A program made the position numbers and the translations under genes. Under the pieces are notes generated by a model. The model made no database searches, was not told the origin of the DNA, and saw only the letters and a list, made by a program, of their open reading frames with translations. Below are positions 1 through 18,262 of a DNA stretch of 64,000 bases, in pieces. This DNA comes from Candidatus Poribacteria bacterium (GTDB lineage Bacteria > Poribacteria > WGA-4E > JAJDTR01). Every line of letters begins with the position of its first letter. Within the stretch, counting starts at the first letter, position 1. Where the stretch lies: positions 3,965,174 through 4,029,173 of the forward strand of contig OZ240209.1 in assembly GCA_965197465.1 (NCBI GenBank). Direction: 5' to 3'.

Positions 1-2
1 AG

Positions 3-251
3 ACTATAGAGTGGCTTGAACGGAAGCGCAAGGATTTTATTGAGTTTCTGCGAGAAAGGTACGCCGATGGTACGGCGCTCACTGCAGCGTGGGGGGAGAA
101 CCGATTGAACTTTGATGACGTTCGTTTTCCCTCTCGGAACAATCGGACGTTTAAGCAGGCAAACGATGTAAAGAAGGGAGATATTACCAGTTTCTGGGAA
201 TCTACCGACACTGAACCCATCATTGAAGCAGAGGAGGACGACAATGAGTAG
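3..251 (+). CDS. C-terminal 82-codon fragment of a gene that begins upstream of the window; by position probably a cas gene such as the large subunit
   Basis: Frame 3 is open from the window edge to TAG at 249-251. It overlaps the downstream Cas7 ATG (244) by 8 nt, which is typical operon coupling. No recognisable motif in the fragment. Confidence 0.35.
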   Translation, partial: TIEWLERKRKDFIEFLRERYADGTALTAAWGENRLNFDDVRFPSRNNRTFKQANDVKKGDITSFWESTDTEPIIEAEEDDNE

Positions 252-1176
252 CTTAGACCTTTTGAAACCTTTCACTATTGAGAAACCGCAACCTCTCATC
301 GGTGCAAAGACGATACAAATTGTTTTGATGCGTGAGATTTTAGATTACACAGTCCTCCGCACAGAAGACACTCGTGAACTCAACACCGTCGCCACACCGT
401 TGTCACTCAGTCAATACGATACCACCATGCGCGTTGCATTTCTGGCAACAAAGCAGAAGGCGGCGGAATCACGACAGTTGGAGCAACTCCTGCGGACAGG
501 AACAGCTGAAGTAGAGATGTCAGTAACGGAATGCTACTTGAAAGACAAGCTCTGTCTCGAATGCCCGCGCTGTACCTTATTTGGCGCGACAAGCACAGAA
601 TCTGGGCGTGCAGATCGAGCCAACATCAAGCACCGCATTGAGTATTCAACAGCGTTTTCCTTGCTTCCATTTGAGGACATTGAATCCACAACGACGTTCA
701 ACGCAATTAACGACCTCAACCAAACGACCGGACAAGCATTAGGTAGCCGCTACGCTGTCGCACCTGCAAACGTATTTCCAAGTATCGTCAGCTTGCGGAG
801 CGCGACGCTCGCCGAGGTGATTTTGACCATTAAAACATTGTTGGCAAGCAAAAGTTACGGCGCAGAATCCCGAATCGGCGGAGATGTCCGTAACTCTGTT
901 TTCGGTATCATTGGTGGTTGGGAGGAAATTATCACGCCGCTTGAACTCACCCTTGAACTCTATGACCAACGCGACAACTTGGATGGAGATACCTGCAAGA
1001 CGATTGCTGAGAAATATGAACCGTTGACAGGTAATCCTGACCGTGTGGCTATTTTCTCACCCGATGAGGTGGATGCAATCGTCAAAGCTGCCGCGGACAC
1101 ACCGCTCGATAAATCGTTATTGACAACAGCTTACAACGATGCTAAAGCCTACGTTGAAGCCCAACAGAAGAAATGA
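244..1176 (+). CDS. cas7: Cas7-family backbone subunit (Csc2/Csa2-like) with a C-x6-C-x2-C-x2-C zinc-finger insertion
   Basis: 311 aa, first gene of a cas7-cas5-cas3' block. The cysteine cluster CYLKDKLCLECPRC is followed by a G-rich loop LFGATSTESG typical of Cas7 RRM proteins. It is translationally coupled to its neighbours. The ATG at 244 is preferred over the TTG at 223 given in the ORF track. Confidence 0.6.
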   Translation: MSSLDLLKPFTIEKPQPLIGAKTIQIVLMREILDYTVLRTEDTRELNTVATPLSLSQYDTTMRVAFLATKQKAAESRQLEQLLRTGTAEVEMSVTECYLKDKLCLECPRCTLFGATSTESGRADRANIKHRIEYSTAFSLLPFEDIESTTTFNAINDLNQTTGQALGSRYAVAPANVFPSIVSLRSATLAEVILTIKTLLASKSYGAESRIGGDVRNSVFGIIGGWEEIITPLELTLELYDQRDNLDGDTCKTIAEKYEPLTGNPDRVAIFSPDEVDAIVKAAADTPLDKSLLTTAYNDAKAYVEAQQKK

Positions 1177-1184
1177 GCGTCCAA

Positions 1185-1215
1185 GAAACCGAGTTTCTTA
1201 AAAAACTCGGTTTCT
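1185..1215 (+). promoter_or_regulatory. Perfect 11-bp-arm palindrome GAAACCGAGTT-N8-AACTCGGTTTC between cas7 and cas5. A second copy lies at 4527-4558 just upstream of the cas1 RBS.
   Basis: Both arms are identical at the two sites. No U-tract follows, so it looks more like a dimeric-regulator operator or RNA processing hairpin than an intrinsic terminator. A half-site recurs at 28054-28064. Confidence 0.4.
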
Positions 1216-1242
1216 CCACATATCACCAAGCGAGGTGACAAC

Positions 1243-1998
1243 ATGGCAAACACAATTCGGCTTTATGAACATGGTGTGCGCGTGTTCGCGGGACGACTGT
1301 ACAACCACGATTACCTTTGGTTCTCATCCAACGAAATCAGCAAGGTTTCGATAACCCAACCCGTCCTGCACAATTACGCACTCTGTTATGCAATCTCGCA
1401 GCGCTCCTACGGGGCTTATCTCGGTTCAACGCCAAAGTATGTTGAAGATCCGGATGGTGAATTCAATGCGATGCCGCTCTACGCAACGCCGGCGCACGCG
1501 GACCATCCCGAGCACATATCGCGCACGACCATCACTTTCAATGCCGTTGATTCACGTACACTGACAACGGGTGATAGCAAAACAATGAATACCCCGAATT
1601 TGGGTAAACGAGTCTACATTGATCCTGTGTGGGAACCAATGGCGATAGAACGTCCGGAAAAAGGCTATCAATTCTACGTTTTCACATTCGACAGCTATCG
1701 CCCACTAGGGGTAACACGGCTTGGTAAGAAAGGGGCTTCAATGCGCATTCGGTGGGAAGAAGTACCTCAACCTATTGCGTTCTTCCGTGAAGGCGAACAA
1801 AGCCCAACACACCCAATTAACCCTTTGGATATCAACGGACATCTCGTCAGCTACGATCCCGTGATGATTCCGCCACATCTATTGTTTCGGACAGCAACGC
1901 TTACCGAAGATTGGTGGCTATTCTTTAGTGCCGGCAGAGCCCGGCATACCATACACCTCCCCAAACGTGTTTTGAACCGAATTGGAGGGGTATCATGA
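1243..1998 (+). CDS. cas5: Cas5-family subunit (Csc1/Cas5-like)
   Basis: 251 aa, directly after cas7, with GAGGTGA RBS at 1231-1237. Its stop overlaps the cas3' start (ATGA at 1995-1998). Size and position match Cas5. Sequence is only weakly diagnostic by eye. Confidence 0.5.
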   Translation: MANTIRLYEHGVRVFAGRLYNHDYLWFSSNEISKVSITQPVLHNYALCYAISQRSYGAYLGSTPKYVEDPDGEFNAMPLYATPAHADHPEHISRTTITFNAVDSRTLTTGDSKTMNTPNLGKRVYIDPVWEPMAIERPEKGYQFYVFTFDSYRPLGVTRLGKKGASMRIRWEEVPQPIAFFREGEQSPTHPINPLDINGHLVSYDPVMIPPHLLFRTATLTEDWWLFFSAGRARHTIHLPKRVLNRIGGVS

Positions 1999-4019
1999 GA
2001 ATCCAGGGCTACTCTTATGAACAAGTCACTGTAGAAGATGTGCAAACCCATCTTTATCCACATCAAGCCGCCATGTACAACGAATGGTCCAATCACACCG
2101 GATTCCTACTCGTGACCAAAACAGGGAGTGGCAAAACACGGGCGACAGCGTTACCCGTACTGAAAAACCATGAATCTGCTGTTTTTGTCTACCCCACAAA
2201 CGCGCTGATTCAAAATCAATCACGGGCTATTCAGCAATTGATGGATGACGAGGGAATAACATATCGGGCGCGGACGCCGGAAACAGCAAACGAAAGGGTG
2301 GGAACTGAAGAATATGAAATCGTTCAAATTAGCTCCCTGACGCTCGCAGCATTTGCAAAGGCGTGGAGAATGGGTGAAAAGCAAAAAGGGGACGCATTGA
2401 TAAAACTAATTGGTCAAGAGAAACGTAAAATTGTATTGATTAACCCCGATATTCTTTATCTTCTGTACTCTTTGCGCTACCGTGGCAGTCCAGAAGTTTT
2501 GTCACATTTTCAAGCATATAAGACCATTGTATTTGACGAATTTCATCTCTACAACGGAGTTGAACTAGCCCACGCGCTTTTCCTCATTTTTTGGGCACAA
2601 CGTATGGGTGCATTCCAACGGGTTGTGTTGCTCTCTGCCACTCCGAATGAAGAGGTCAAAACCTATCTAGATCGACTGCTCAGCCCACTTGTCATTGATG
2701 CTGATGTAACAGTCCCACAACCTATCTGTGGCGAGCGCACGGTCGCCCATGATGTAGAACTCAATGCCTTGCCGGTTGCTCGGGATGTCGTCGAAACAGC
2801 ACAATCAAAGGTCCTTGAACTTCAGAGCAAACTATACCAACTCCAAGCAGAAAACCAAGAAGCAAGCAACACAGAAGATTATGTGCCTTGTGTCGTTATC
2901 CTCAATTCGGTCGTCAACGCCATCGCGCTGGAAGACGCTCTCGTTGAGGCGGGGATACCACGTACAGAAATCGCACCAATTCGCGGGCTTTCAGCACGGA
3001 GTAGTCGAGACGTGAGAGGCAGGATGCTTGTCATCGGTACCGCGGCAATCGAAGTTGGAATCGACTTCAAAACTGACTATCTGATTTTTGAGGCGGGCAA
3101 CCACGCATCGTTCATACAGCGATTTGGACGGCTTGGAAGACATAGCATCGGACAGGCGTTCCTACTCGCTACTCCGCGTGAATGTGAAGCGGTAAAATCA
3201 CTTGGAAATGATATTTCCCGGGACGCTCTAGAGGAGGGTGTCAAAACCATCTATCCCGGACAGGATGCGAAGGGATGGTTTGTTGATACGCTTTGCGGGG
3301 CGTTTACGATACTCGCCCAAGCCGAGAACTTTCGCAGTAGGATTATCGACGATTGGTCTGCTGATGAAACGGTGAAAACTGAAATTGAAACATGGCTAGA
3401 TGCTGCTCTGACAGACTATGCAACAAAGATGCGTCTAACTCAGATGAAACGTGCTCGCTTGAAACTTCGACGTAATCCCACGTGGTTTGAACATTACAAA
3501 GCATTGGACTCATTTCGGACATCGTTACCAAGCATTGAAGTTTGGGATGCACGCGAAAAATTTGAACGCGGGCGAGAACCGTACTACACCGTAGATTTGA
3601 AAACACTTTTAACACGTACGACGGTTCACTGGTCCGAAAAGTATCAGCGAATGGAAGTGAAAAAAGGCTACGATAAATGGCATCAGGTTAATCTGCTAAA
3701 GTCGTTTGATGATGAACATGAGGATGAATGTTGTGGCATGTTTCGGACAACTGCTGATTATCCGAACGGAGAGATGCAATTCATGCAAGAAGGTCATTTG
3801 ACATCGGTCTCACATGTGATGGCAAAACAGAAGTACAAAGAACGTGTTACCGGCCATCTGTTTGTTCTCGCACCGGAAGATTTACGCTACTACTTGGACT
3901 GGCGACTAGCGTGGTTTAGATGCGGATCGCGTGGGAAATTCATCATTGCATTTGATGGGGACGCGCTTTTACTGAAAGCAATCTACGATCGAACAGTGAA
4001 AATGAGAGACGGTACGTAA
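1995..4019 (+). CDS. cas3: Cas3' superfamily-2 helicase, helicase-only with no HD nuclease domain
   Basis: Walker A TKTGSGKTRA sits near the N-terminus, so there is no room for an N-terminal HD. DExH box is VFDEFH. Motif VI is QRFGRLGR. 674 aa. Confidence 0.85.
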   Translation: MRIQGYSYEQVTVEDVQTHLYPHQAAMYNEWSNHTGFLLVTKTGSGKTRATALPVLKNHESAVFVYPTNALIQNQSRAIQQLMDDEGITYRARTPETANERVGTEEYEIVQISSLTLAAFAKAWRMGEKQKGDALIKLIGQEKRKIVLINPDILYLLYSLRYRGSPEVLSHFQAYKTIVFDEFHLYNGVELAHALFLIFWAQRMGAFQRVVLLSATPNEEVKTYLDRLLSPLVIDADVTVPQPICGERTVAHDVELNALPVARDVVETAQSKVLELQSKLYQLQAENQEASNTEDYVPCVVILNSVVNAIALEDALVEAGIPRTEIAPIRGLSARSSRDVRGRMLVIGTAAIEVGIDFKTDYLIFEAGNHASFIQRFGRLGRHSIGQAFLLATPRECEAVKSLGNDISRDALEEGVKTIYPGQDAKGWFVDTLCGAFTILAQAENFRSRIIDDWSADETVKTEIETWLDAALTDYATKMRLTQMKRARLKLRRNPTWFEHYKALDSFRTSLPSIEVWDAREKFERGREPYYTVDLKTLLTRTTVHWSEKYQRMEVKKGYDKWHQVNLLKSFDDEHEDECCGMFRTTADYPNGEMQFMQEGHLTSVSHVMAKQKYKERVTGHLFVLAPEDLRYYLDWRLAWFRCGSRGKFIIAFDGDALLLKAIYDRTVKMRDGT

Positions 4020-4049
4020 ACGTCCAATGAACTTTGACTGATTCACCTC

Positions 4050-4373
4050 CTAACGCTGCGCTTCCATATACGCACGCAAAACGGCGTTCATGCCGGTCTC
4101 GTCGCCTTGGCCGTGGGAGTTGAACCACACGAGCACGTAGCTATCGACGCGAAGCGAGATGGCGTGTTTGGGTTGGGGTATCACGACGTGGGCATCTTTC
4201 CAGAATGCTTCATCGGTGGGTTGGGCGTCGGGGTCCGCTGCCGCTGCCGCATCAATCTCTGCCTCGGTCATAGTCGCGACCTGCTCCCAATCTGTTTGTG
4301 TGTCTTTCGGGAGGTTATCAAGCGAAAATCTCACGGTATGTTCTTCCTTCACGGCGGTTTGCCTTGTCGCCAA
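4050..4373 (-). CDS. BrnA-family (COG3514) type II antitoxin-like protein with no cognate BrnT, encoded antisense inside the cas operon
   Basis: The C-terminal half matches the BrnA signature: TDWEQVATMTEAEIDAAAAADPDAQPTDEAFW...ISLRVDSYVLVWFNSHGQGDETGMNAVLRAYMEA. Start is TTG. No RelE/BrnT-like ORF is found in any frame within the 150 nt upstream. Confidence 0.6.
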   Translation of the reverse strand: MATRQTAVKEEHTVRFSLDNLPKDTQTDWEQVATMTEAEIDAAAAADPDAQPTDEAFWKDAHVVIPQPKHAISLRVDSYVLVWFNSHGQGDETGMNAVLRAYMEAQR

Positions 4374-4526
4374 GGTAGATTATTTGGGGGTCCTCTGAAT
4401 CAACCTTTATCTCGGAGAGGACTTCACTGTAGGAGCGATCTCCAGGTCGCGATTCCCTACTAAAGTATACCTGAAATTCAAGGCTCACGCAAGAATTTAG
4501 ACTACCCCGTATAGTTATCTCTTAAA

Positions 4527-4558
4527 GAAACCGAGTTTTGGGGAAAAAACTCGGTTTC
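4527..4558 (+). promoter_or_regulatory. Second copy of the GAAACCGAGTT/AACTCGGTTTC palindrome, between the brnA-like gene and cas1
   Basis: Same arms as at 1185-1215. The spacer is TTGGGGAAAA. It ends 23 nt before the cas1 RBS. Confidence 0.4.
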
Positions 4559-4592
4559 GTTGAACGTCCGTTACTCTTGCAGGAGGAAGAAA

Positions 4593-5696
4593 ATGAACCA
4601 ACTCACCATCTCCGACTACGGCACATCTCTCGGCAAACGCTCGGAGCGCGTCAGCGTGCGATACCGCGGGGTGGAGCGGGAGAAGGAGGAGCACGCCCTC
4701 ATGGATCTGGATCAGATTGTCATCGCTTCGCGCGGGGTTAGTCTGTCGTCGGATTTGATTGAGGCGTGCACCGAACGCGGGATCGAAATCTCGTTTCTCA
4801 GCTTCAGCGGCAAACCGTATGCGAAACTCAACAGCCCTTCGTTGACGGCGACGGTCATTTCTCGGCGCGAGCAACTCGCCGCGTACCACGATGAGCGCGG
4901 GGTAGAGATTGCCAAACGGTTCGCGGCGGGTAAGTTACGGAATCAGATAAACCTGGTACGCTATTTCGGCAAGTACCGCAAGAAAAGCGCACCCAAGAGA
5001 TACGATGAACTGACGGAGCGGGTTACCAAGATTGAGGGACTGATGGACGATATTCAGGCTCTCCAAGCGCCAAACGTTGAATGGAACGGAGAATCGCCGA
5101 TTGATGCCGTCCGTACCACCTTGCTCAACTTAGAGGGCCGCGCCGGGGCGCTCTACTGGGAGTGCGTGCAACGGCTGCTGCCCGCCGGGCGATTCACGAC
5201 GCGGAATCATCAGGGCGCGACGGATGATGTCAACGCACTGCTCAACTACGGCTACGGGATGCTCTACTCTCAGGTCTGGAGCGCGCTCGGGCTGGCTGGA
5301 CTGGAACCGTTTGCGGGTTTTCTGCACGTCGATCGCCCGGGCAAACCGTCGCTGGTGTTGGATTTTATCGAGGAGTTCCGTCAGCCGATTGTTGACCGGG
5401 TCGTGTTTGCGATGATTAACAAGAAATTCAAGGTCGAGTGGGAGGAGCCGGATGACGACGCCGCCAAATCCGCGCACCAGTCCGCAAACGCGGAGGCAGA
5501 CGTGGGTACGCAACGCTATCTGAGCAAAAGCACGCGGCGCGCGTTTGCCGATCGGGTGCTGGAGCGCCTTCAGGAGACGGAGCGGTTCGAACGCAAAGAC
5601 CAGAAGTTGTGCAACATCATCCAGATTCAAGCGCGTCATCTGGCGATGTTCCTGCGCCGCGAACGGGATTATCAGCCATTTGTCTCTAGTTGGTGA
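4593..5696 (+). CDS. cas1: Cas1 integrase
   Basis: Cas1 hallmark NALLNYGYGMLYSQVWSALGLAGLEPFAGFLH...SLVLDFIEEFRQPIVD. AGGAGGA RBS at 4581-4587. The ATG at 4593 is preferred over the upstream start in the track. Confidence 0.9.
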   Translation: MNQLTISDYGTSLGKRSERVSVRYRGVEREKEEHALMDLDQIVIASRGVSLSSDLIEACTERGIEISFLSFSGKPYAKLNSPSLTATVISRREQLAAYHDERGVEIAKRFAAGKLRNQINLVRYFGKYRKKSAPKRYDELTERVTKIEGLMDDIQALQAPNVEWNGESPIDAVRTTLLNLEGRAGALYWECVQRLLPAGRFTTRNHQGATDDVNALLNYGYGMLYSQVWSALGLAGLEPFAGFLHVDRPGKPSLVLDFIEEFRQPIVDRVVFAMINKKFKVEWEEPDDDAAKSAHQSANAEADVGTQRYLSKSTRRAFADRVLERLQETERFERKDQKLCNIIQIQARHLAMFLRRERDYQPFVSSW

Positions 5697-5773
5697 ATTG
5701 ACATGCACACCTACGTCATTTACCTTCAAACGCCCGTAGGAGGGGCATCTTGCCCCGAGTTTCCACAATTGAC

Positions 5774-6025
5774 ATGCACACATACGTGATTTACGACATC
5801 GTCGAAGACCGAATCCGCAAGAAGATCGCCGATGTCTGCCTCGACTACGGCTTGAAGCGCATCCAATACAGCGCCTACTTGGGGGATATCAACACCACGC
5901 GGCGGCGGGCGTTGGATGCAAAACTAACGCAGGAATTTGGCGAAGCGGAGGGAAAGATTGAAGTCCTCTCCGTGTGTGCGAAAGATTTCGACCAACGCAC
6001 CATTATCGGGGATGCTGAAAGATGA
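5774..6025 (+). CDS. cas2: Cas2
   Basis: 83 aa. MHTYVIYDIVEDRIRKKIADVCLDYGLKRIQYSAYL matches the Cas2 N-terminal beta1-alpha1 pattern. Its stop overlaps the cas4 ATG (ATGA). Confidence 0.75.
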   Translation: MHTYVIYDIVEDRIRKKIADVCLDYGLKRIQYSAYLGDINTTRRRALDAKLTQEFGEAEGKIEVLSVCAKDFDQRTIIGDAER

Positions 6026-6594
6026 ATATACGGGTCAGCGACATCAAACAGTACTTCTACTGTCCGCGGGTGGTCTACCACACCTACTTCACGCCGGTGC
6101 ACCGTCCGACGACGCACCCGATGCAGCTCGGCGCTGTTGAACACGAAGTGTTAAGTGTCCTTGAACGCCGTCGAACCCTTGCCCGCTACGGACTTGAGGC
6201 TGGCAGTCGCAAGTTCCATGTCTCACTCCACGCCCCGGATCTCGGATTAACTGGCGTGCTCGACCTGCTTATTGAAACCGAAACTGGCGCGTTTCCCGTC
6301 GAGTTCAAGAGCACGAGACAACGGCTGGACCTGAACGCAAAGTGCCAGTTGACAGCATACGCGATGATGGTGGAGGAGTGCCTGGGTGTCGCCGTGACTC
6401 AAGGGTTTATCTACCGGATTCCCACGGAACGAATCACGCCGGTAACGATTTCAGAGTCGCTCCGCGAGAAAACGCGGAACGCTCTCCGGGACATCCGACG
6501 AATGTTGTCGGACGAGTGGATGCCTCCGCCGACTCCGCAGCGCGGGAAATGCGTCGAATGCGAATTTCGGCGATTCTGCGCGGATGTGTTGTGA
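6022..6594 (+). CDS. cas4: Cas4 RecB-like nuclease with a 4-Cys Fe-S cluster
   Basis: N-terminal YCPRVVYH Cys plus C-terminal C-x2-C-x5-C (CVECEFRRFC). Nuclease motif LDLLIETETGAFPVEFKST (D-x-E-x-K). It is adjacent to the array leader. Confidence 0.85.
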   Translation: MNIRVSDIKQYFYCPRVVYHTYFTPVHRPTTHPMQLGAVEHEVLSVLERRRTLARYGLEAGSRKFHVSLHAPDLGLTGVLDLLIETETGAFPVEFKSTRQRLDLNAKCQLTAYAMMVEECLGVAVTQGFIYRIPTERITPVTISESLREKTRNALRDIRRMLSDEWMPPPTPQRGKCVECEFRRFCADVL

Positions 6595-7011
6595 GGCAGC
6601 CAACTAAAATCGTTGCGTTTCGCAAATCCGTTTTCTGCGGAAAAAGTGGGTCAATTTGCGAAATCTTTGTAAAAAGCCTGAAACGCTGGTGAGACGCGGG
6701 ATGCGCCTCTCTGCCCGTGGACAATCGTGGACTTTACAGAAGGGACGGCGTCGCATTTCAGATGGATCTCAACCCGATTTGCGATAGGCTAGGTCGAGGT
6801 TCCGTGTGCCCCGAGCGATGTTCGGGGACAAACTAACGATTTTCGAATATCCACACGTAAATCCCCCAAACACTGATGAACACTGAATATGTGGCGCCCG
6901 CTCCGTTTGAAATTGACAGGGCAACGCCGATGTGTCAAAATTATAAACATGGCGTACAAACGCAGGTTTCTACTATGTTTAGACCCGTTTCGGCTACTGA
7001 TTAGGAGGTCG
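6595..7011 (+). promoter_or_regulatory. CRISPR leader
   Basis: 417-bp non-coding stretch between the cas4 stop and the first repeat. The array's degenerate repeat is at the opposite end, so this is the leader side. Confidence 0.5.
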
Positions 7012-10000
7012 GTAGCAGTGAGTGCCGCGATGAAAAGCGGACTGAAAGCGCTCCACTGTCTCACCCCTCCGAAACCTCAACCAGTAGCAGTGAGTGCCGC
7101 GATGAAAAGCGGACTGAAAGCCTATGTACCCACCGCCACATAACGTAGTCCTCGCGTAGCAGTGAGTGCCGCGATGAAAAGCGGACTGAAAGCCGTCTCT
7201 CGGTTCATTAAATCTTCGGCATGGGTCAGTAGCAGTGAGTGCCGCGATGAAAAGCGGACTGAAAGTCACTAACAAGTCTTCGTTGAAACAACCGTTGAGA
7301 GTAGCAGTGAGTGCCGCGATGAAAAGCGGACTGAAAGAACTCACCGAAACACGGGACATCTATGTTGAAGTTGTAGCAGTGAGTGCCGCGATGAAAAGCG
7401 GACTGAAAGAGATGTCACGTCTGGTATGGACGTGGGAATGATATAGTAGCAGTGAGTGCCGCGATGAAAAGCGGACTGAAAGCGGACGCATTTCGTGCAT
7501 TCGTACAACAACGTCATGTAGCAGTGAGTGCCGCGATGAAAAGCGGACTGAAAGACGCCCACCGACCTCGCCGTTGAGATTAGCCAGAAAGTAGCAGTGA
7601 GTGCCGCGATGAAAAGCGGACTGAAAGTTAACCAGAACCGCCTAGGCGACGCCCGCGCAGAGTAGCAGTGAGTGCCGCGATGAAAAGCGGACTGAAAGTC
7701 CGAGCAACGACACACCGGACACTCAAATCCTATTGTAGCAGTGAGTGCCGCGATGAAAAGCGGACTGAAAGAGAAAACGATAATCATTACAACATCGCCG
7801 TTTTTAGTAGCAGTGAGTGCCGCGATGAAAAGCGGACTGAAAGAGTTTTCAAAAGCAATTAACTCCACATCCAGCGGCCTAGTAGCAGTGAGTGCCGCGA
7901 TGAAAAGCGGACTGAAAGTCTGACCGAACCGCAGCGCAACCTGTTTCGGACTGTAGCAGTGAGTGCCGCGATGAAAAGCGGACTGAAAGTGGCGCATGTT
8001 GAAAGCCGGCTACCGAACACGATTACGTAGCAGTGAGTGCCGCGATGAAAAGCGGACTGAAAGGTTGGCGTCCATACCGCCCATAATAGCCCCAATCTAA
8101 GTAGCAGTGAGTGCCGCGATGAAAAGCGGACTGAAAGCGCCCAGCGCTTCGGCGTCCACACCGGTTTGCAGTAGTAGCAGTGAGTGCCGCGATGAAAAGC
8201 GGACTGAAAGTCCGTGCCCCCGGCTGACCATGACACACCGGCGGCGTAGCAGTGAGTGCCGCGATGAAAAGCGGACTGAAAGGAGGATAAATCGAAACTG
8301 GAGGATAAGGCATATAAAGTAGCAGTGAGTGCCGCGATGAAAAGCGGACTGAAAGGCGCGCGCCGCCAAAACAGTGCCGCTGCGTTAATGTAGCAGTGAG
8401 TGCCGCGATGAAAAGCGGACTGAAAGGCTATACCAACTGATCCGCAGTTGGTTGAATCAGGGTAGCAGTGAGTGCCGCGATGAAAAGCGGACTGAAAGCG
8501 TCTACATGGATATCGGCAAGGATTACACGGGTTGTAGCAGTGAGTGCCGCGATGAAAAGCGGACTGAAAGCTAGGCTGTTGAACCCGTTCTTTTCCTCTC
8601 CACCGTAGCAGTGAGTGCCGCGATGAAAAGCGGACTGAAAGATCAACCAATCGACACTGACCGCCATCTACAGCGCGGGTAGCAGTGAGTGCCGCGATGA
8701 AAAGCGGACTGAAAGATTTCCGCGCGAGACGCCTTCATCTCTTTCAGCACTGTAGCAGTGAGTGCCGCGATGAAAAGCGGACTGAAAGCTTCTATGCTTG
8801 TCGTATAACCGTTTCCGTAGCTATGGTAGCAGTGAGTGCCGCGATGAAAAGCGGACTGAAAGCCCTCCGGGTCGTCCGGGTCGGCAATGCCGCCGTAGTA
8901 GCAGTGAGTGCCGCGATGAAAAGCGGACTGAAAGACTCGCCAGTGTGTTCATGCGGCAATCCAAGGCATGGTAGCAGTGAGTGCCGCGATGAAAAGCGGA
9001 CTGAAAGCCGTCTATAGATTAGCGAGCAGCTCCTCGAGGAAACGACCGGTAGCAGTGAGTGCCGCGATGAAAAGCGGACTGAAAGTTCTACAACACGAGT
9101 CCTGACACTTCGCTGATTTGCGTAGCAGTGAGTGCCGCGATGAAAAGCGGACTGAAAGACCCCGTCGGGGGGATTCACCGAGACGCGTTACGCGGAGTAG
9201 CAGTGAGTGCCGCGATGAAAAGCGGACTGAAAGGCGGTCACGCGCATTCAGATATGTTCTCACTTCGGTGTAGCAGTGAGTGCCGCGATGAAAAGCGGAC
9301 TGAAAGGCGTGTTGAATCCACTGTCAATCCCGATGCCGGAGTAGCAGTGAGTGCCGCGATGAAAAGCGGACTGAAAGATGCAGCTTGGGCATGTGCAGAC
9401 CCAGGAGTTCAGGTAGCAGTGAGTGCCGCGATGAAAAGCGGACTGAAAGACGAATACAGTATACAGGAGAGGGGCTTCAAGCACGTGTAGCAGTGAGTGC
9501 CGCGATGAAAAGCGGACTGAAAGCCGAGCTAGTTACAGTTGCCGATCAGATGAGTGCCATGTAGCAGTGAGTGCCGCGATGAAAAGCGGACTGAAAGCCT
9601 AAATGTCACACCCTCAGAAGTTTGTCTTGGTAGGTAGCAGTGAGTGCCGCGATGAAAAGCGGACTGAAAGTCCATCATCGTAGCCTTTAACCGATACTAC
9701 CCCGCTGTAGCAGTGAGTGCCGCGATGAAAAGCGGACTGAAAGTAATTCCTGTATGTCTTGATTCATTCTATCTCCCTAGTAGCAGTGAGTGCCGCGATG
9801 AAAAGCGGACTGAAAGTGCTACGAATATCATGTGCTATTCCTTTGGCATTTAGTAGCAGTGAGTGCCGCGATGAAAAGCGGACTGAAAGTAAAGTATATG
9901 TGAACATACCGCCTACATACATTGTAGCAGTGAGTGCCGCGATGAAAAGCGGACTGAAAGGTCGAAGTGCGCTGGGGAGTCATCGCCAAGTTTACCGTAG

Positions 10001-10844
10001 CAGTGAGTGCCGCGATGAAAAGCGGACTGAAAGGTAGGCAAAGTACCTGTGGTAACAGTGTAAGCCGAAGTAGCAGTGAGTGCCGCGATGAAAAGCGGAC
10101 TGAAAGCACGCCCATTCCTTGCTTGAAGCGCACTTGTCTTGGGTAGCAGTGAGTGCCGCGATGAAAAGCGGACTGAAAGAGTTATGACGCCGCTTGAAAC
10201 GGACACTGGCATGGTGTAGCAGTGAGTGCCGCGATGAAAAGCGGACTGAAAGTTTGTTACAAACTTACTAGACGATTTATGATGGTCTATGTAGCAGTGA
10301 GTGCCGCGATGAAAAGCGGACTGAAAGACAATCGCACGAAGTAACACGGCTTTAGTTTGTCGTAGCAGTGAGTGCCGCGATGAAAAGCGGACTGAAAGGT
10401 TTTCTTGTAATGAGAATTGGGGTAGATTTCAGAGTAGCAGTGAGTGCCGCGATGAAAAGCGGACTGAAAGATGTGGCACGAGTTTATATTCATGCAGACC
10501 GGACGGATGGTAGCAGTGAGTGCCGCGATGAAAAGCGGACTGAAAGATGTGGCACGAGTTTATATTCATGCAGACCGGACGGATGGTAGCAGTGAGTGCC
10601 GCGATGAAAAGCGGACTGAAAGTCTATGTACAAAATCTGGGCACGAGTGCATAACCAGTAGCAGTGAGTGCCGCGATGAAAAGCGGACTGAAAGATGTGG
10701 CACGAGTTTATATTCATGCAGACCGGACGGATGGTAGCAGTGAGTGCCGCGATGAAAAGCGGACTGAAAGGATAAGCGGCAAAACGGTGAACATCAATGA
10801 GGGCAGGGTAGCAACCATTGCCCCGATGAAAAGGATCAAGGGAG
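7012..10844 (+). CRISPR. CRISPR array of 52 identical 37-nt repeats plus one degenerate terminal repeat at 10808-10844. Spacers are 34-41 nt.
   Basis: All repeat starts were enumerated by hand, from the first at 7012 to the last at 10734. The repeat contains a CCGC/GCGG stem with GATGAAAA loop and an ACTGAAAG 3' handle, like Cas6-processed I-D/III-type repeats. Spacers at 10471-10509, 10547-10585 and 10695-10733 are identical. Confidence 0.97.
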
Positions 10845-10959
10845 CGGATAGCGACTGCGATAGCTAGTACAGCGGCGTTGTTTAGGGGCTTGGCATGTAA
10901 CGCTCATACCACTGGCCAAAAGCATCAAGCGAAACGGCAGTCGCCAGCTGGAGGACTCT

Positions 10960-11024
10960 CTATGGGAACTCTATCGCACTCCCTATCCGTTCGTTTGATC
11001 CCCGATGAAAAGGGGACTGAAATC
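10960..11024 (+). repeat. Orphan degenerate CRISPR repeat CCCGATGAAAAGGGGACTGAAATC fused to an inverted GATCAA/GCGATAG-type module
   Basis: 11001-11024 matches the 3' two-thirds of the array repeat with a few substitutions. It is preceded by CTATCGCACTCCCTATCCGTTCGTTTGATC. Confidence 0.6.
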
Positions 11025-11215
11025 TCAAACACAGTTGGGCATCGATAAGCGCGGTGGGTATGTTACCGCCTATAAAAAGGACGCAACACTCGGTGTTTTC
11101 ATGTATATTGATGAACATGGCGGGGATATCGGCGCCTTTGCCAATGACCAAGAACGTGTGAAATAACGACTGACTGTCACACTTGTGACAGTCAGACTAC
11201 CCATAAGGAGATTGC

Positions 11216-14020
11216 ATGCGAACAATACGAATACTACTCACCATATTCCTTCTTGCCCCCCTCCCCGTCTTCGCCGCTATCACAGTCGTCGACGACCAGT
11301 TGCACGTCGACACGGCAGCCTACACCGTTCTATTCGACCGCGGCACCATCACTCAACTCCATAACAAGCGCACCGGCGAAACCCACACTCTCGCCCCCGG
11401 CGCCAACCCGAATCCGGGGTTTAGTAAGCAGACTGCCATCGTAGGCCGGGGTAATATCAAAGATTGGTCGCCCCGTTGGGATGCCGACATACAGATAAAC
11501 AAAATTACTGACCACCACGCTGACATTGTATTTCGAAAGGGCGGGAACGCGATAACACTGTCAATCGGCATCGACCCCGCCAACAACGACCTGCTTATCG
11601 GAGGACAGGCTGTATCCGCGATACCCGGCGTTATTGGTATCCAATGGTCTGTCGAAAACCTTGATCTCCATAACCTTAGCCTCATCATCCCATCTCAAGG
11701 GATACAACAAATCGACGCCTCCTCCGCTATCGAACACCGCAACTTTCCATATCCCGACACATTCCGCTGGGAAGCGCAGCTTGCTATTATAGAATCCCAA
11801 CTCGGCGGGTTCTACGTCCGAGGCACCGATACAACCTTCCGATTCAAAGAACTAAATTATCAGCGCGACGATACCAGTTTCGGGCTCGTGTTCAAAACCA
11901 TAAATCAAGCGCCGTGGGATAGCCTCACATCAGCCAAGTCCGTCACCTGGCGCCTCAATACCTACGTTGGAGAGTGGTGCGTTCCCGCTCAAATACACCG
12001 CGACTGGATGGAACAGGCGTTTAACCCCTGGCGTCTTAGCGACGTACCGGCGTGGGTCAGTGATATCGGCTTGGTCGTTTTCCTCACGAAACTGGATACG
12101 GAACAGCTGAACGCGGTGGAAGCCTTGGCACAGCACGTTGAACCGACGCAAACGCTTTTCTATCTGACAGATTGGCGCAAATACGAGAACGATATCATGC
12201 ACCCGGATTTTACCGCCATTCACCATAATTTTGAAACGTTTCTCGAGGTCGCTCGGCGGTACGGATACCGGATTATGCTGCACGTTAACCTTCATAACTG
12301 CTCGCCGACCCATCCGCTCTATGCGGAATTCAAGCAATACCAAATACGACATCCCAACGGCGAACTGTCCGGCTGGAGATGGGACGATATTGATCATCCG
12401 GACCGGAATGCGCACATCAGTCTCGGCAGTTCGCGTTGGCGCAACCTGCTTATCCGACAATTCAAGGCGCTAAGGGACAAATACGCCATAGACGCCTTTC
12501 ATCTTGATGTGAGCCACTACATCGTCAACGACGGCAACGGTTTGGTCGAAGGTCTTACCAGCGCCGAAGCGAGCGTGCTGATGCACCGGCAGTTGATGGA
12601 AGCCATGCCGGGCGTGGTGCTTGCCGGTGAACACCTCCACGAAGTCACGTTTTTCCGCGAAAGTATCGCACAACGCAATTTATCGGAGCATGCCACACAC
12701 CCGCTCAGCGCCTTCCTCTTTGCCCCGTACACCCGGTTTATGGGGCATCTTGGATTTCCGCGTGAACACAATCCCCAGCGCCTCCGATACGCGATCCAAT
12801 TTTACGAACGTCAAGGTACTCTACCGACCGCGCGAATATCGAACGAAAGCCTATTACACCAACCGATCACCCGGGACATACTCGCTGTTGCACGCCAGTG
12901 GCAAGCGTTGAAGTTGACGCCTGATATCCACTGCCATTGGTGCGAAAATACCCTATTCCAATATACCACGGACAACGGCGAGAGTGTGACCTACCAAAAG
13001 GTCGACGGCGTATATTCACTCAATATACCCGACGGTAACGGATACCGGCGAGTGCATGGCGTCACCCAAGCCGCTACCCGGTGGAGCCTCCCCGAATGGC
13101 GCGCGTACAATGAAGAGATGCTTCTCGGTCTGGATCCGAACAAATACTATTCGCTCCGCAATGCGCCGCGCGATGTCTCCCAATTACACATTAACGCGCT
13201 TTCCCCGGGTGTTTACGTGGCAGAGACCCGCGTAACACCGCAAGCCGCCGTCTTTCGACTCGAGTCGACCTCCGGGGTTAGAGACACCTCTGTAGATATG
13301 TTCCTTCCAATGCCGCCGCTTGCAAGTGTTCCAAAGACACTTGTCTCCGTAGCCGGCAATCACTACCGTATCGACACAAATCTATCCCGACCTATCGTAA
13401 TCATACTCGCCGCGCCGCGCATTCGCCTGCCCTATAATTTAAGAGACTATCCGTTTATCGCCGGATTGCAACAGAGCGGTATCTTCCGAGTCGGAAGCCA
13501 CCACGGATCCGGCGAACGTATGACAGCGACCCTTGATGGTATCCATAAAGAGACCATCTTTGCCCACCCGCCTAAAACTGACAAAACAATTCTCCAATTC
13601 GTGTTTACGCTGCCCGAATCGCCGTCAACCCTTTCATACTCGATGGGGTTAGCCGGAGAACACAGCAAGGGCGTTCTGTTTGAAATCCGCCTTAACGGCC
13701 AGACGCACGTTAACTTCTTGAAGGATACCTTCGACTGGACGGACGGCAGTATCTCGCTTGACGAATTTGCGGGCGAACCCGTACTATTGGAATTTGTGAC
13801 AGACCCTGGGGACAGCTCGGACTACGATTGGGCGCATTGGGGGGATTTGATCATTACCGCTGACACGAATCCAGCCGATGTAAACGGGGACGGCATTGTC
13901 AACATCCTCGATTTGACGCTTGTGGCTCAAGCGTTCGGAATGAGTAGTGCGGCGGCTGACGTGAACGGTGACGGCGTCGTGAACGTTTTCGATTTGGTTT
14001 TTGTGGCGAACGCTTTTTAG
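11216..14020 (+). CDS. Secreted 934-aa putative glycoside-hydrolase-like protein with a C-terminal type-I dockerin
   Basis: Signal peptide ILLTIFLLAPLPVFAA. The C-terminus has two dockerin repeats DVNGDGIVNILDLTLVAQAFG / DVNGDGVVNVFDLVFVANAF. AAGGAGA RBS. Confidence 0.7.
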   Translation: MRTIRILLTIFLLAPLPVFAAITVVDDQLHVDTAAYTVLFDRGTITQLHNKRTGETHTLAPGANPNPGFSKQTAIVGRGNIKDWSPRWDADIQINKITDHHADIVFRKGGNAITLSIGIDPANNDLLIGGQAVSAIPGVIGIQWSVENLDLHNLSLIIPSQGIQQIDASSAIEHRNFPYPDTFRWEAQLAIIESQLGGFYVRGTDTTFRFKELNYQRDDTSFGLVFKTINQAPWDSLTSAKSVTWRLNTYVGEWCVPAQIHRDWMEQAFNPWRLSDVPAWVSDIGLVVFLTKLDTEQLNAVEALAQHVEPTQTLFYLTDWRKYENDIMHPDFTAIHHNFETFLEVARRYGYRIMLHVNLHNCSPTHPLYAEFKQYQIRHPNGELSGWRWDDIDHPDRNAHISLGSSRWRNLLIRQFKALRDKYAIDAFHLDVSHYIVNDGNGLVEGLTSAEASVLMHRQLMEAMPGVVLAGEHLHEVTFFRESIAQRNLSEHATHPLSAFLFAPYTRFMGHLGFPREHNPQRLRYAIQFYERQGTLPTARISNESLLHQPITRDILAVARQWQALKLTPDIHCHWCENTLFQYTTDNGESVTYQKVDGVYSLNIPDGNGYRRVHGVTQAATRWSLPEWRAYNEEMLLGLDPNKYYSLRNAPRDVSQLHINALSPGVYVAETRVTPQAAVFRLESTSGVRDTSVDMFLPMPPLASVPKTLVSVAGNHYRIDTNLSRPIVIILAAPRIRLPYNLRDYPFIAGLQQSGIFRVGSHHGSGERMTATLDGIHKETIFAHPPKTDKTILQFVFTLPESPSTLSYSMGLAGEHSKGVLFEIRLNGQTHVNFLKDTFDWTDGSISLDEFAGEPVLLEFVTDPGDSSDYDWAHWGDLIITADTNPADVNGDGIVNILDLTLVAQAFGMSSAAADVNGDGVVNVFDLVFVANAF

Positions 14021-15581: not shown

Positions 15582-16997
15582 ATGGCGCCGATGGTTCCGT
15601 TTTTTCAACAGGTCAACCTTAACTTCGATGCAGCCGCTCGGTTCACCGATCACCCGCGCGGGCTGCTTGAACAGATCAAAATGTGCAATACGGTCTGTCA
15701 CATGACATTCCCTGTCAAGAGAGCTGATGGGGCTATTGAAGTCATTCACGCGTGGCGTGCGGAACACAGTCATCACAAACTGCCGACAAAAGGGGGAATC
15801 CGTTACAGTACATTGGTCAATGAGGACGAAGTGACGGCGCTCGCCGCCCTGATGACATACAAATGCGCCATCGTCGATGTGCCGTTCGGCGGGGCGAAAG
15901 GTGGCGTCCAGGTCGACATCAGGAAGTATTCCACCGACGAATTGGAACGCATCACTCGACGCTACACGTATGAATTGGTGCAGAAGAGTTTCATTGGTCC
16001 GGGGATAGATGTTCCCGCCCCCGACTACGGTACCGGGGAACGTGAAATGGCATGGATTGCCGGCACCTATACCTCATTGAATCCGGGCAAGTTGGACGCC
16101 TTAGCGTGTGTGACCGGAAAACCGCTTGAGCAGAGCGGGATTCGCGGACGGAGAGCGGCAACCGGCAGAGGCGTGTATTTCGGCATCCGCGAAGCGTGCA
16201 GTTTCTCGGAAGATATGAAAACGCTTGGGCTTACGCCGGGTCTGCAGGGAAAACGGGTGGCGGTTCAAGGATTTGGCGACGTCGGGTACCACGCCGCCAA
16301 ATTCTTGAGTGAAGGCGGGGCGGTGATTGTGGGATTGGCAGACATTGGCGGCGCAATCTACAATCCGAAAGGGTTGGATGTCGAGGAGGTTTTTCAGCAT
16401 CGAGGCGAAAATGGTGCCCTTCTCAATCTTCCGGGCGCGACCAATCTCCCAAACCCCGCCCATGTCCTCGAACTGGAATGTGACATCCTCGTACCGGCGG
16501 CGCTTGAAAATCAAATCACCCGCGAGAACGCCTCCCGAATCAAAGCCAAGATTATTGCGGAAGCCGCAAATGGCCCAACGACCCCCCAAGCTGACGACAT
16601 CCTCAAGGCAAAAGGGGTGATGGTTATTCCCGATGTGTATCTGAATGCCGGCGGCGTTACGCTCTCCTATTTTGAATGGTTAAAGAACCTCTCGCATGTG
16701 CGATTCGGCCGGCTGGAAAGTCGATTTGAGGAAAATACGCACAGAAATCTTTTGGAGGCAATGGAAAGCGTGTCGGGGGTGCGGTTCTCAGAATCAGAAC
16801 AGGAACGATTGGCGCATGGCGCCACTGAGGAAGATTTGGTGGATGCGGCGCTTGAGGAAACCATGGTGACCGCATACCACGAAATTAGAACGGAATCAAA
16901 AGCGCTCGGACAAAAAGCCCGATTAAGAACCGCAGCGTTCGTCATCGCTATCAATAAGGTGGCTCGGTCTTATATGCAATCCGGAATCTTCCCGTAA
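15582..16997 (+). CDS. gdhA: Glutamate dehydrogenase (Glu/Leu/Phe/Val dehydrogenase family)
   Basis: KGGIRYSTLVNEDEVTALAALMTYKCAIVDVPFGGAKGG and a Rossmann GFGDVG motif. AAGGGAGA RBS. Confidence 0.85.
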   Translation: MAPMVPFFQQVNLNFDAAARFTDHPRGLLEQIKMCNTVCHMTFPVKRADGAIEVIHAWRAEHSHHKLPTKGGIRYSTLVNEDEVTALAALMTYKCAIVDVPFGGAKGGVQVDIRKYSTDELERITRRYTYELVQKSFIGPGIDVPAPDYGTGEREMAWIAGTYTSLNPGKLDALACVTGKPLEQSGIRGRRAATGRGVYFGIREACSFSEDMKTLGLTPGLQGKRVAVQGFGDVGYHAAKFLSEGGAVIVGLADIGGAIYNPKGLDVEEVFQHRGENGALLNLPGATNLPNPAHVLELECDILVPAALENQITRENASRIKAKIIAEAANGPTTPQADDILKAKGVMVIPDVYLNAGGVTLSYFEWLKNLSHVRFGRLESRFEENTHRNLLEAMESVSGVRFSESEQERLAHGATEEDLVDAALEETMVTAYHEIRTESKALGQKARLRTAAFVIAINKVARSYMQSGIFP

Positions 16998-17063
16998 GAA
17001 GGTCGCCCCGATTTCATCGTAGTAGCTTCTCTATTCGGTTTTCACAAGGAAAGGTTTATCGCT

Positions 17064-17798
17064 GTGCGAGATTATGGTGATTTTGTCCGAAGATTACAGG
17101 GGTTGAGTTTGCCCAATTTACAGCAAGATACGCTTGGCGAGGTCGATGGCTACACTATCTATCGTCTGCAGTTCGGGGCCGCCTCTCGTGTGAAGCGGCA
17201 GGTCTTGATAACCGCCGGCCTCCATGGAGATGAGCCGGCCGGGCCCGAAGCGGTTCTGCGGTTCTTGCACGAATACGACGCAACACGCTATGACGACTTC
17301 AGATTTCTCGTCCTTCCTTGCATCAATCCGTACGGCTATGTCCACAATACGCGCGAAAACAGGACGGAAATAGACCTCAACCGTGTGTTTGAAGCCGACA
17401 ATCCGCCAGAGGAAGCTCGTCTCGTCAAAACTGCGGTCGAGGGCAAACGATTCGATTTCGCAATAGATTTTCACGAGGATTGGGAAGCCGCCGGATTTTA
17501 CTTCTATGAGGGACGCAAAAGTGAGAACTGGATTGGGCCGGAGATCATCCGGAACGTCGAAAGCGTTGGCCCAATCGACCGGGAGAACGATGAAAACGAC
17601 TTGCCGATTGCCGATGGTGTGTTTAAGGTCGATCCCGGCTGGGGGCGACAAGGGTTTACCCCCTACCTGCTCGCTTTTCACTCCCACCACGTGATGATTT
17701 GCGAGACACCTATGAGTTGGCCCATGCACCAGCGCACCGCGGCTCACCTGAAGGCACTGGAGACGGTGTTGGCTCATTACGATCAACTGAGCGGATAG
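17064..17798 (+). CDS. Succinylglutamate desuccinylase/aspartoacylase (M14-like zinc hydrolase) family protein
   Basis: ITAGLHGDEPAGPEAVLRFL zinc-ligand region typical of the AstE/AspA family. Confidence 0.55.
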   Translation: MRDYGDFVRRLQGLSLPNLQQDTLGEVDGYTIYRLQFGAASRVKRQVLITAGLHGDEPAGPEAVLRFLHEYDATRYDDFRFLVLPCINPYGYVHNTRENRTEIDLNRVFEADNPPEEARLVKTAVEGKRFDFAIDFHEDWEAAGFYFYEGRKSENWIGPEIIRNVESVGPIDRENDENDLPIADGVFKVDPGWGRQGFTPYLLAFHSHHVMICETPMSWPMHQRTAAHLKALETVLAHYDQLSG

Positions 17799-17977
17799 CG
17801 AAGGCGATAGCTAATCCCGATAGAAAATTCTTCTCACTATTCTTTCGCTTGATCGCTCGATCTATTCAGTCGTTTAATCTTTTCCAGAGGTGTTGGGTTT
17901 CACTCAAATGTCCGTACTTTCGGGCGAAATGAAATCTCGACAATCATCTTCTGTGTGTGGTTTTTCCCAGTTTTCCG

Positions 17978-18041
17978 TTCAACCCAACCTACGTGCTTGA
18001 CTGGTTTCTGCGTAGTGCGGGGCAAGATGCCCCGCACTACG
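17978..18041. repeat. Copy of the dispersed 16-mer TTCAACCCAACCTACG followed by a 13-bp-stem hairpin (CGTAGTGCGGGGC-AAGAT-GCCCCGCACTACG)
   Basis: The 16-mer recurs at 32905 (rc), 53835, 57480 (rc) and 58005. The hairpin is seen directly at 18011-18041. Confidence 0.6.
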
Positions 18042-18059
18042 AGAACAGGGAGCAGTTCG

Positions 18060-18117
18060 TGTCCCGATGAAAATGATCAAGGGAGGGAATAGCGACCAGG
18101 AATTTCTATCGGTTGAG
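18060..18117 (+). repeat. Orphan copy of the CRISPR trailer junction: CCCGATGAAAATGATCAAGGGAGGGAATAGCGAC...
   Basis: Near-identical to 10820-10866 at the array end (CCCGATGAAAAGGATCAAGGGAGCGGATAGCGAC). Confidence 0.6.
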
Positions 18118-18262
18118 ATTACAAATCGCTGGACACGATCACGGATTTATAATAAAATACAATCCCCGCTTTGCCTCATGATTTATGCGGGCAAGGACGG
18201 GCGGGAAAAATCTGCCGTTGTAATTTTAGCATTCATTGATATATCAATTGTTGAGGAGAAAT

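Follow-up and report, generated by a model that had tools for sequence, protein, structure and literature searches.

The start of a 64,000-nucleotide stretch of a Candidatus Poribacteria genome (contig OZ240209.1, positions 3,965,174 to 4,029,173 of the forward strand; hereafter the window) very probably belongs to a chromosomal type I-D CRISPR-Cas locus, of which it contains the downstream two-thirds. On the evidence of sequence comparison, its upstream genes would be those carried at the same place by four of five sibling metagenome contigs (L001-L005), retrieved through the exact Cas5d protein. A first-pass annotation of the window had described an unusual class 1 arrangement, possibly an undescribed subtype, without a source of nuclease activity. 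This view is overturned by the genes found upstream in the siblings and by the type I-D profiles that Cas7 and Cas5 match. As first flagged, the locus therefore matters little, since its oddities amount to the boundary of the window and to a gene order that is normal for its lineage.

Type I-D genes of the window

The open reading frames (ORFs) of the window were searched against Pfam, NCBIfam (TIGR models) and the PADLOC-DB profiles, and curated cut-offs were applied. The cas genes are as follows.

3..251, forward strand: 3' end of cas11d (82 codons plus TAG), the last 82 residues of a protein of 212 amino acids (aa), the gene being cut by the window start
244..1176, forward strand: cas7d (csc2), 310 aa, likely from ATG 244; PF18320 and TIGR03157 above cut-off, PDB 7SBA_A match
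1243..1998, forward strand: cas5d (csc1), 251 aa; TIGR03159 match, PDB 7SBA_H match
1995..4019, forward strand: cas3' helicase, 674 aa, no HD domain; TIGR03158; DEAD, ResIII and Cas3-like_C_2 domains
4593..5696, forward strand: cas1, 367 aa from ATG 4593 after GGAGGA (longest ORF from 4560); PF01867, TIGR00287
5774..6025, forward strand: cas2, 83 aa from ATG 5774 (longest ORF from 5750); PF09827, TIGR01573
6022..6594, forward strand: cas4, 190 aa; TIGR00372, PF01930

The starts chosen for cas7d (244), cas1 (4593) and cas2 (5774) agree with the lengths called in sibling contigs, and all visible ORFs are intact. Neighbouring genes overlap at three junctions: by 8 bp between the cas11d stop and the ATG of cas7d, by 4 bp between the cas5d stop and the start of cas3', and also between the cas2 stop and the start of cas4. 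The order cas7-cas5-cas3'-(antisense brnA)-cas1-cas2-cas4-array, already read in the first-pass annotation, is borne out by the ORFs and the profile searches.

The interference genes match type I-D models. Cas7 is recognised by the Csc2 models PF18320 (140.5 bits; cut-off 25.5) and TIGR03157 (99.7 bits; cut-off 38), and by sequence comparison with Cas7d of Synechocystis (7SBA_A, E 5e-18). Cas5 matches the Csc1 model TIGR03159 (79.1 bits; cut-off 41.4) and Cas5d of the same organism (7SBA_H, E 5e-10). Cas3', the translation of which displays the motifs GSGKT, DEFH and SAT, matches TIGR03158, "type I-D Cas3'" (163.6 bits; cut-off 69.1). The I-D models of PADLOC give a concordant result. With these three TIGR models above their cut-offs, the resemblance to type I-D that had been noticed earlier was correct. 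The description of Cas3' as helicase-only also holds, no HD family being matched by this protein in Pfam, NCBIfam or PADLOC. The "zinc-finger" cysteine cluster of Cas7 is real, but it is not the peculiarity that it had been taken for: it matches the CxnCxxCPxC cluster of Synechocystis Cas7d (7SBA_A) residue for residue, and is a canonical type I-D feature.

The order cas7-cas5-cas3' had also evoked type I-A, and an I-A-like cassette does occupy this very site in sibling strains. However, the similarity is superficial and confined to gene order. The window Cas7 and Cas5 match the Csc2 and Csc1 models alone, and the I-A profiles (Csa2 Cas7, Cas8a, Cas5a, Csa5) have no match among window proteins in NCBIfam or PADLOC. 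Moreover, the I-A-like cassette of the siblings has no detectable DNA similarity to window 1-4047. That the locus belongs to type I-A is next to impossible.

The adaptation proteins are recognised by general models: Cas1 by PF01867 (241 bits) and TIGR00287 (230 bits), Cas2 by PF09827 (55.7 bits) and TIGR01573 (49.3 bits), and Cas4 by TIGR00372 (129 bits) and PF01930 (68.3 bits).

Upstream genes in sibling contigs

Positions 1-4146 of the window are 98.0-99.8% identical to the five siblings, the highest value being reached with L002, which is complete and can be aligned up to position 1 of the window. In the four siblings that reach far enough (L001-L004), the upstream genes encode a WYL/WCX regulator, Cas6, a protein of 892-914 aa and a protein of 212 aa. 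The sibling Cas6 (~282-316 aa) matches PF10040 (59.5 bits) and the PADLOC Cas6 profile (368 bits). The C-terminus of the 212-aa protein is the 82-residue fragment encoded at the window start; thus, the C-terminal fragment of an upstream gene that had been reported there is real, and is the end of Cas11d. Wherever upstream sequence is available, in siblings and related loci alike, an HD-bearing cas10d lies directly before cas11d, and cas6 is found in most of these loci within the sequence retrieved.

The earlier statement that an HD nuclease, Cas6 and a large subunit are missing is true of the 64-kb window, as judged by tblastn, but not of the locus, since six sibling contigs and 14 related loci have cas6, the HD-bearing cas10d and cas11d just before cas7d. 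Their absence is a window-edge artefact, the first position of the window falling inside the operon, in the cas11d gene. A class 1 subtype not described before and truly devoid of these genes would likewise account for their absence from 64 kb. Nevertheless, the truncation of cas11d by the window start, the HD-bearing cas10d of the related loci and the passing of type I-D equivalog cut-offs by Cas7, Cas5 and Cas3' make such a subtype extremely improbable.

Cas10d and a separately encoded Cas11d

The 892-aa protein matches the PADLOC profile PDLC01192 (Cas10d, CAS-I-D large subunit, effector_LS) over its full length, with 1089 bits. Residues H36, H74-D75, H128 and D163, together with a four-cysteine cluster, are invariant among 31 homologues. 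These features identify the protein as Cas10d, the N-terminus of which carries a type I-like HD (Cas3'') nuclease domain. A near-invariant GGEG (FEGGEG, residues 797-802 of L002 Cas10d) is also observed near a C-terminal beta-alpha region, and may be a degenerate remnant of the GGDD cyclase motif of Cas10.

The 212-aa protein has no match in Pfam, NCBIfam or the PDB sequences. It is aligned end to end with the PADLOC profile PDLC01194 (Cas11d, CAS-I-D, effector_SS; E 3e-64, 215 bits), and is identified as Cas11d, the small subunit of type I-D in separately encoded form. When 1.84 billion representatives were searched with the family profile, 107 representatives (50%-identity clusters) were obtained; almost all of them are stand-alone and 145-220 aa long, and 42 columns of the family are invariant. 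A natural fusion also exists: in P0302 (1119 aa), the 892-aa Cas10d aligns to residues 13-885 and the 212-aa profile to residues 908-1115. This fusion is encoded on five contigs, beside csc2-csc1-cas3'-cas6. An RY..L..AW motif in the C-terminal extension of Cas11d accounts for spurious weak matches to P0335, a membrane protein of 764 aa, and to a beta-galactosidase.

The start of cas11d abuts the end of cas10d; in L002, L006 and L007 the two genes overlap by 4 bp and are in different reading frames. The order cas10d-cas11d-cas7d-cas5d-cas3' is kept in 14 loci from Candidatus Poribacteria (8), Chloroflexota (4) and Fimbriimonadia (Armatimonadota; one contig fetched twice). In most of these loci cas1-cas2-cas4 comes next, and WYL and/or cas6 are nearby. 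The separate genes therefore depart from the canonical I-D situation, in which Cas11d arises by internal translation within cas10d, a feature said to be conserved across all I-D lineages (PMC10212523; McBride 2020 preprint).

This canonical situation raises the possibility that the 892-aa and 212-aa proteins are the two pieces of a frameshifted, broken cas10d, and hence that the system is decaying. One sibling contig of low coverage (L009, a 3x assembly that carries P0002) indeed has a fragmented cas10d. However, the same two-gene arrangement recurs in the 14 loci of three phyla, with the 4-bp overlap and the change of frame described above. In addition, the cluster representatives are nearly all stand-alone, the family has its invariant columns, and a dedicated PADLOC profile exists for Cas11d. 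A broken gene is accordingly very improbable, and the separate cas11d marks a variant of type I-D rather than an exclusion from it, as PADLOC catalogues PDLC01194 under I-D.

The idea that the stand-alone cas11d might define an undescribed variant was dropped, because PADLOC-DB already has full-length I-D profiles for both proteins; the profiles were in curated CRISPR profile sets by 2023. The lineage is already catalogued as an I-D variant, though little discussed, and is not a new subtype. The text of the 2025 classification update makes no mention of an unfused I-D variant. Records of the lineage's Cas10d and Cas11d in NCBI/JGI (P0091, P0098, P0205, P0211, P0215) read "hypothetical" or "HD domain-containing protein". 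For Cas10d, the label "hypothetical" arises because the NCBIfam Csc3 model scores below its cut-off. In L002, Cas10d and Cas11d (5695-8373 and 8370-9008) are recognised by the PADLOC profiles, and no NCBIfam or Pfam model passes. The two subunits of this I-D lineage thus go unnamed in public annotation, which leaves an annotation gap.

The C-terminal extension of Cas11d, of about 70 aa (L002 8370-9008, residues ~140-212), displays invariant W160, P173, D190 and F194 and an acidic tail. It is missing from relatives of 145-150 aa (e.g., L022 7110-7553) and from Synechocystis Cas11d (146 aa).

Comparison with known systems

The effector-module gene order varies among I-D groups, chiefly in the positions of cas3' and cas6 (PMC10212523). 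In Synechocystis sp. PCC 6803 (PDB 7SBA/7SBB), the order is cas3'-cas10d-cas7d-cas5d-cas6-cas4-cas1-cas2. Here, by contrast, cas3' follows cas5d, cas6 is upstream and the adaptation genes are in the order cas1-cas2-cas4. The Poribacteria Cas10d is too divergent for TIGR03174, and its Cas11d (212 aa with the ~70-aa extension) comes from a separate, translationally coupled gene, whereas that of Synechocystis is an internal in-frame product of cas10d. In the archaeal system of Saccharolobus islandicus LAL14/1 (6THH), Cas10d has a Cas11-like domain within one polypeptide; this I-D locus is reported to lack cas2 and to have a Csa3 regulator rather than WYL (PMC10212523). Compared with the PADLOC variant defined by PDLC01192 and PDLC01194, nothing substantive differs: the lineage is the same, and the window adds a new host lineage and strain and a junctional brnA.

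Type III-A (Csm) operons are generally known to have the order cas6-cas10-csm2/cas11-csm3/cas7-csm4/cas5. The present lineage appears similar in its succession of cas6, large subunit, separate small subunit, cas7 and cas5. It differs from type III-A in that it has no match to a type III Cas10 profile and no cyclic oligoadenylate partners, in the presence of Cas3', and in the Csc2 and Csc1 families of its Cas7 and Cas5. As a second and weaker reading, the unfused cas11d could keep an ancestral, type III-like cas10-cas11 arrangement rather than result from secondary fission. A widespread lineage with a separate cas11d, together with a fused relative, bears on the origin of the fusion of large and small subunits between type III and type I.

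Leader, CRISPR array and repeats

The leader, the array and the degenerate repeats that follow it are located as follows.

6595..7011, forward strand: leader, 417 bp, between cas4 and the first repeat, assigned by position
7012..10844, forward strand: CRISPR array, 52 identical 37-nt repeats (7012-10770) and 51 spacers, then a spacer and a degenerate repeat
10808..10844, forward strand: degenerate terminal (53rd) repeat
10987..11023, forward strand: orphan degenerate repeat CCGTTCGTTTGATCCCCGATGAAAAGGGGACTGAAAT, beyond the array end

The repeat, GTAGCAGTGAGTGCCGCGATGAAAAGCGGACTGAAAG, is present in perfect copies separated by spacers of 34-41 nt, giving a period of 71-78 nt. The end of the array had been placed at 10844, which coincides with the end of the degenerate 53rd repeat. 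Because degenerate repeats sit at the opposite end of the array, the leader side is taken as the acquisition end; the leader region is 92-97% identical to sibling leaders. The repeat is predicted to fold into a hairpin with a 4-bp CCGC/GCGG stem, followed by an 8-nt tail, ACUGAAAG, in agreement with the stem-loop and handle of the first-pass annotation. In type I-D, the CRISPR RNA (crRNA) has an 8-nt 5' handle and a 29-nt 3' handle, for ~72 nt in total (PMC10212523). The 37-nt repeat and the 71-78-nt period fit this architecture.

Sibling arrays use the repeat variants GTAGCAACCATTGCCCCGA[T/C]GAAAAGGGGACTGAAAG, with a compensatory change of the stem from CCGC/GCGG to CCCC/GGGG (L002 array, 16492-19534). 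In the L005 array (7426-11092), three variants occur together, that of the window among them. The degenerate terminal repeat of the window and the orphan repeat derive from the CCCC/GGGG variant and not from the window's own repeat. This mismatch suggests array turnover or recombination, and the orphan repeat is probably the remnant of an older array end.

Spacers 48, 49 and 51, at the trailer end (10471-10509, 10547-10585 and 10695-10733), are the same 39-mer, ATGTGGCACGAGTTTATATTCATGCAGACCGGACGGATG, which has no match in IMG/VR; the triplication looks like a local repeat-spacer duplication. Spacer 16 (8138-8173) matches a spacer of the L002 array (17992-18026) at 33 of 35 positions, and the repeat variants of the two arrays differ. 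Such a likeness might stem from separate acquisitions of the same target, or from an old spacer common to both arrays. No spacer matches the rest of the window, where self-targets were sought. After the array, a trailer segment of ~193 bp (10821-11013) is present in one copy; it is repeated twice in tandem in L003 (19780-20151) and four times in L027 (15807-16552).

Weighing the assignment

Taken with its siblings, the locus has a Csc2-family Cas7, a Csc1-family Cas5, an HD-less Cas3' and a Cas10d with an N-terminal HD domain, as expected for type I-D. It departs from the I-D signatures on two counts, the separately encoded Cas11d and a Cas1 outside the cyanobacterial I-D type (Cas1d). The system is probably active in immunity, and three features argue that it is functional, namely the intact ORFs, an array of 52 repeats without any difference, and start codons that overlap the preceding stops (cas11d/cas7d, cas5d/cas3', cas2/cas4).

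It should, however, be noted that several results weigh against this reading. The match of Cas10d to the NCBIfam model TIGR03174 (Csc3) is limited to the N-terminus and reaches 28.6 bits, under the cut-off of 60. Cas1 scores 175.8 bits with the I-D-specific model TIGR04093 (cas1_CYANO), far from the cut-off of 385, so that generic TIGR00287 alone passes among the TIGR models. The tblastn search of the 64-kb window found no cas6, cas10d or WYL gene, and type III genes were likewise absent; in this particular genome, the presence of WYL, cas6, cas10d and the full cas11d is inferred from the siblings. Look-up of the exact window Cas3' and BrnA proteins found neither on record. Finally, two spacers compared with IMG/VR and the whole array compared with GenBank phages gave no protospacer match, which bears on activity and on the protospacer adjacent motif (PAM), for which GTN would be expected in type I-D.

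A rival explanation is an orphaned or inactive partial locus, having lost cas10d and cas6 by an upstream rearrangement. The sequence upstream of the window is unseen, and cassette swaps, IS200/605 insertions and toxin-antitoxin remnants mark the site as a recombination hot spot. Such a loss is nevertheless quite improbable, given the intact ORFs, an array in which all 52 repeats agree, a 99.8% match to the complete L002 locus up to position 1, and a cas11d 3' end that is intact and translationally coupled to cas7d. A complete type I-D locus is thus preferred.

Predicted interference and adaptation pathway

By analogy with the established I-D pathway (review PMC10212523), the following mode of action can be proposed. 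The full operon would be as in the siblings: WYL, cas6, cas10d, cas11d, cas7d, cas5d, cas3', antisense brnA, cas1, cas2, cas4, leader and array. The array would be transcribed from the leader, and Cas6 would cut the 37-nt repeats after the CCGC/GCGG hairpin, releasing ~72-nt crRNAs that carry the 8-nt ACUGAAAG 5' handle. Cas10d, Cas11d, several Cas7d forming a filament and Cas5d would then assemble on the crRNA as Cascade. Within this complex, Cas10d would read the PAM, and Cas11d together with the C-terminus of Cas10d would stabilise the R-loop. Upon PAM and protospacer recognition, the Cas3' helicase would be recruited and the HD domain of Cas10d would cut the DNA. Cas1, Cas2 and Cas4 would insert new spacers at the leader-proximal end.

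Interference cassettes at one chromosomal site

The Cas4 protein of the window is found, residue-identical, on nine other contigs of the same sample series, and six of these nine (L024-L029) were retrieved. They represent the same chromosomal site, with glutamate dehydrogenase and dockerin/leucine-rich repeat (LRR) genes as flanks where visible. The cas1-cas2-cas4 genes and the leader are common to them and to the window (4048-7048), at 92-99% nucleotide identity, as is the repeat GTAGCAACCATTGCCCCGATGAAAAGGGGACTGAAAG or close variants of it. L026 (e.g., 1-11026) also has WYL and cas6, which show 93% identity to those of L002; in L027, the end of cas6 can be seen.

The interference genes are of other subtypes. 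In L024-L027 and L029, the cassette encodes Cas3 (helicase then HD), Cas8a, a Csa2/DevR-family Cas7 and Cas5a, and is I-A-like (PADLOC PDLC01417, 229 bits; PDLC01390, 206 bits). In L028, it is of type I-B (Cas8b1, Cas7b, Cas5b, Cas3), cas6 and WYL being outside the sequence fetched for this contig. No DNA similarity was detected among the I-D, I-A-like and I-B cassettes. The adaptation module is therefore not subtype-specific, as it serves I-A-like and I-B cassettes in siblings too.

In cas1, the window shares 99.4% identity with the I-A-like L024 and ~92-93% with the I-D siblings, whereas in the I-D cassette it shares 99.8% with L002. Because the closest relatives of the two parts differ in this way, the mosaic pattern indicates a recent exchange of cassettes by recombination in conserved flanks. 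More generally, it can be proposed that the site has a fixed chassis, made of the adaptation genes, the leader, the repeat family and, where visible, WYL and cas6, into which whole cassettes of different subtypes are swapped by homologous recombination. The window and L001-L005 have the I-D cassette, L024-L027 and L029 the I-A-like one, and L028 that of type I-B. We regard the chances for and against this proposal of a chassis as about equal. If it is true, a single Cas6, together with a single repeat bearing the ACUGAAAG handle, would provide the crRNAs loaded into three Cascade types. The mosaic implies, rather than proves, that the three types are served by a single repeat family and, where it is present, a single Cas6. 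Cassettes of type I-D, I-A-like and I-B at the same site, sharing one adaptation module and array and, where visible, cas6, offer a natural experiment on cross-subtype compatibility of crRNA handles and on effector-module exchange.

The right-hand seam of the cassettes is occupied by the brnA/brnTA module, intact in L028, or by other toxin-antitoxin genes (DUF5615). In the window, two ORFs are found at this junction of the interference and adaptation modules.

4050..4373, reverse strand: brnA-like antitoxin gene, 107-aa ORF; PF14384 BrnA_antitoxin 35.7 bits (cut-off 26.1)
4374..4488, reverse strand: candidate brnT remnant, 56-aa ORF; located upstream of brnA, intact BrnT in L028

Siblings carry BrnA at the same position. 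The 56-aa ORF is probably what is left of brnT, which would encode the partner toxin; it matches no BrnT family in Pfam or NCBIfam searches. An adjacent BrnT and BrnA pair is thus not found in the window, intact BrnT being seen in sibling L028 only. If cassettes are exchanged as proposed, the seam of recombination would lie where the brnTA module sits at the junction. The cas3'-cas1 gap as a whole is a variable toxin-antitoxin spot (window 4050-4488; L028 7126-7666; L001 14173-15103), with an intact brnT-brnA in L028, a DUF5615 gene and its partner in L001, L027 and L029, and a deletion derivative in L002.

Neighbouring genes and insertions

A Y1 transposase gene of IS200/IS605 type (PF01797) lies between cas1 and cas2 in most siblings (L002 14447-15013, L003, L005 and L025 among others); the window (gap 5697-5773) and L026 are without it. 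Some siblings have a type III-like module right after the array (L024 13486-20573, L025 15891-20573, L002 20009-20756), comprising a Cas_NE0113-family gene, a 515-aa protein with a Cas10/Cmr2 palm domain and several repeat-associated mysterious proteins (RAMPs), none of which is present in the window. There, the array is directly followed by a secreted-looking protein of 934 aa (DUF6259, C-terminal dockerin domain; 11216-14020), at a place where siblings have LRR-dockerin proteins. The remainder of the 64-kb window corresponds to chromosomal housekeeping genes, including those for DnaE, ribosomal protein S1, glutamate dehydrogenase and S-adenosylhomocysteine (SAH) hydrolase.

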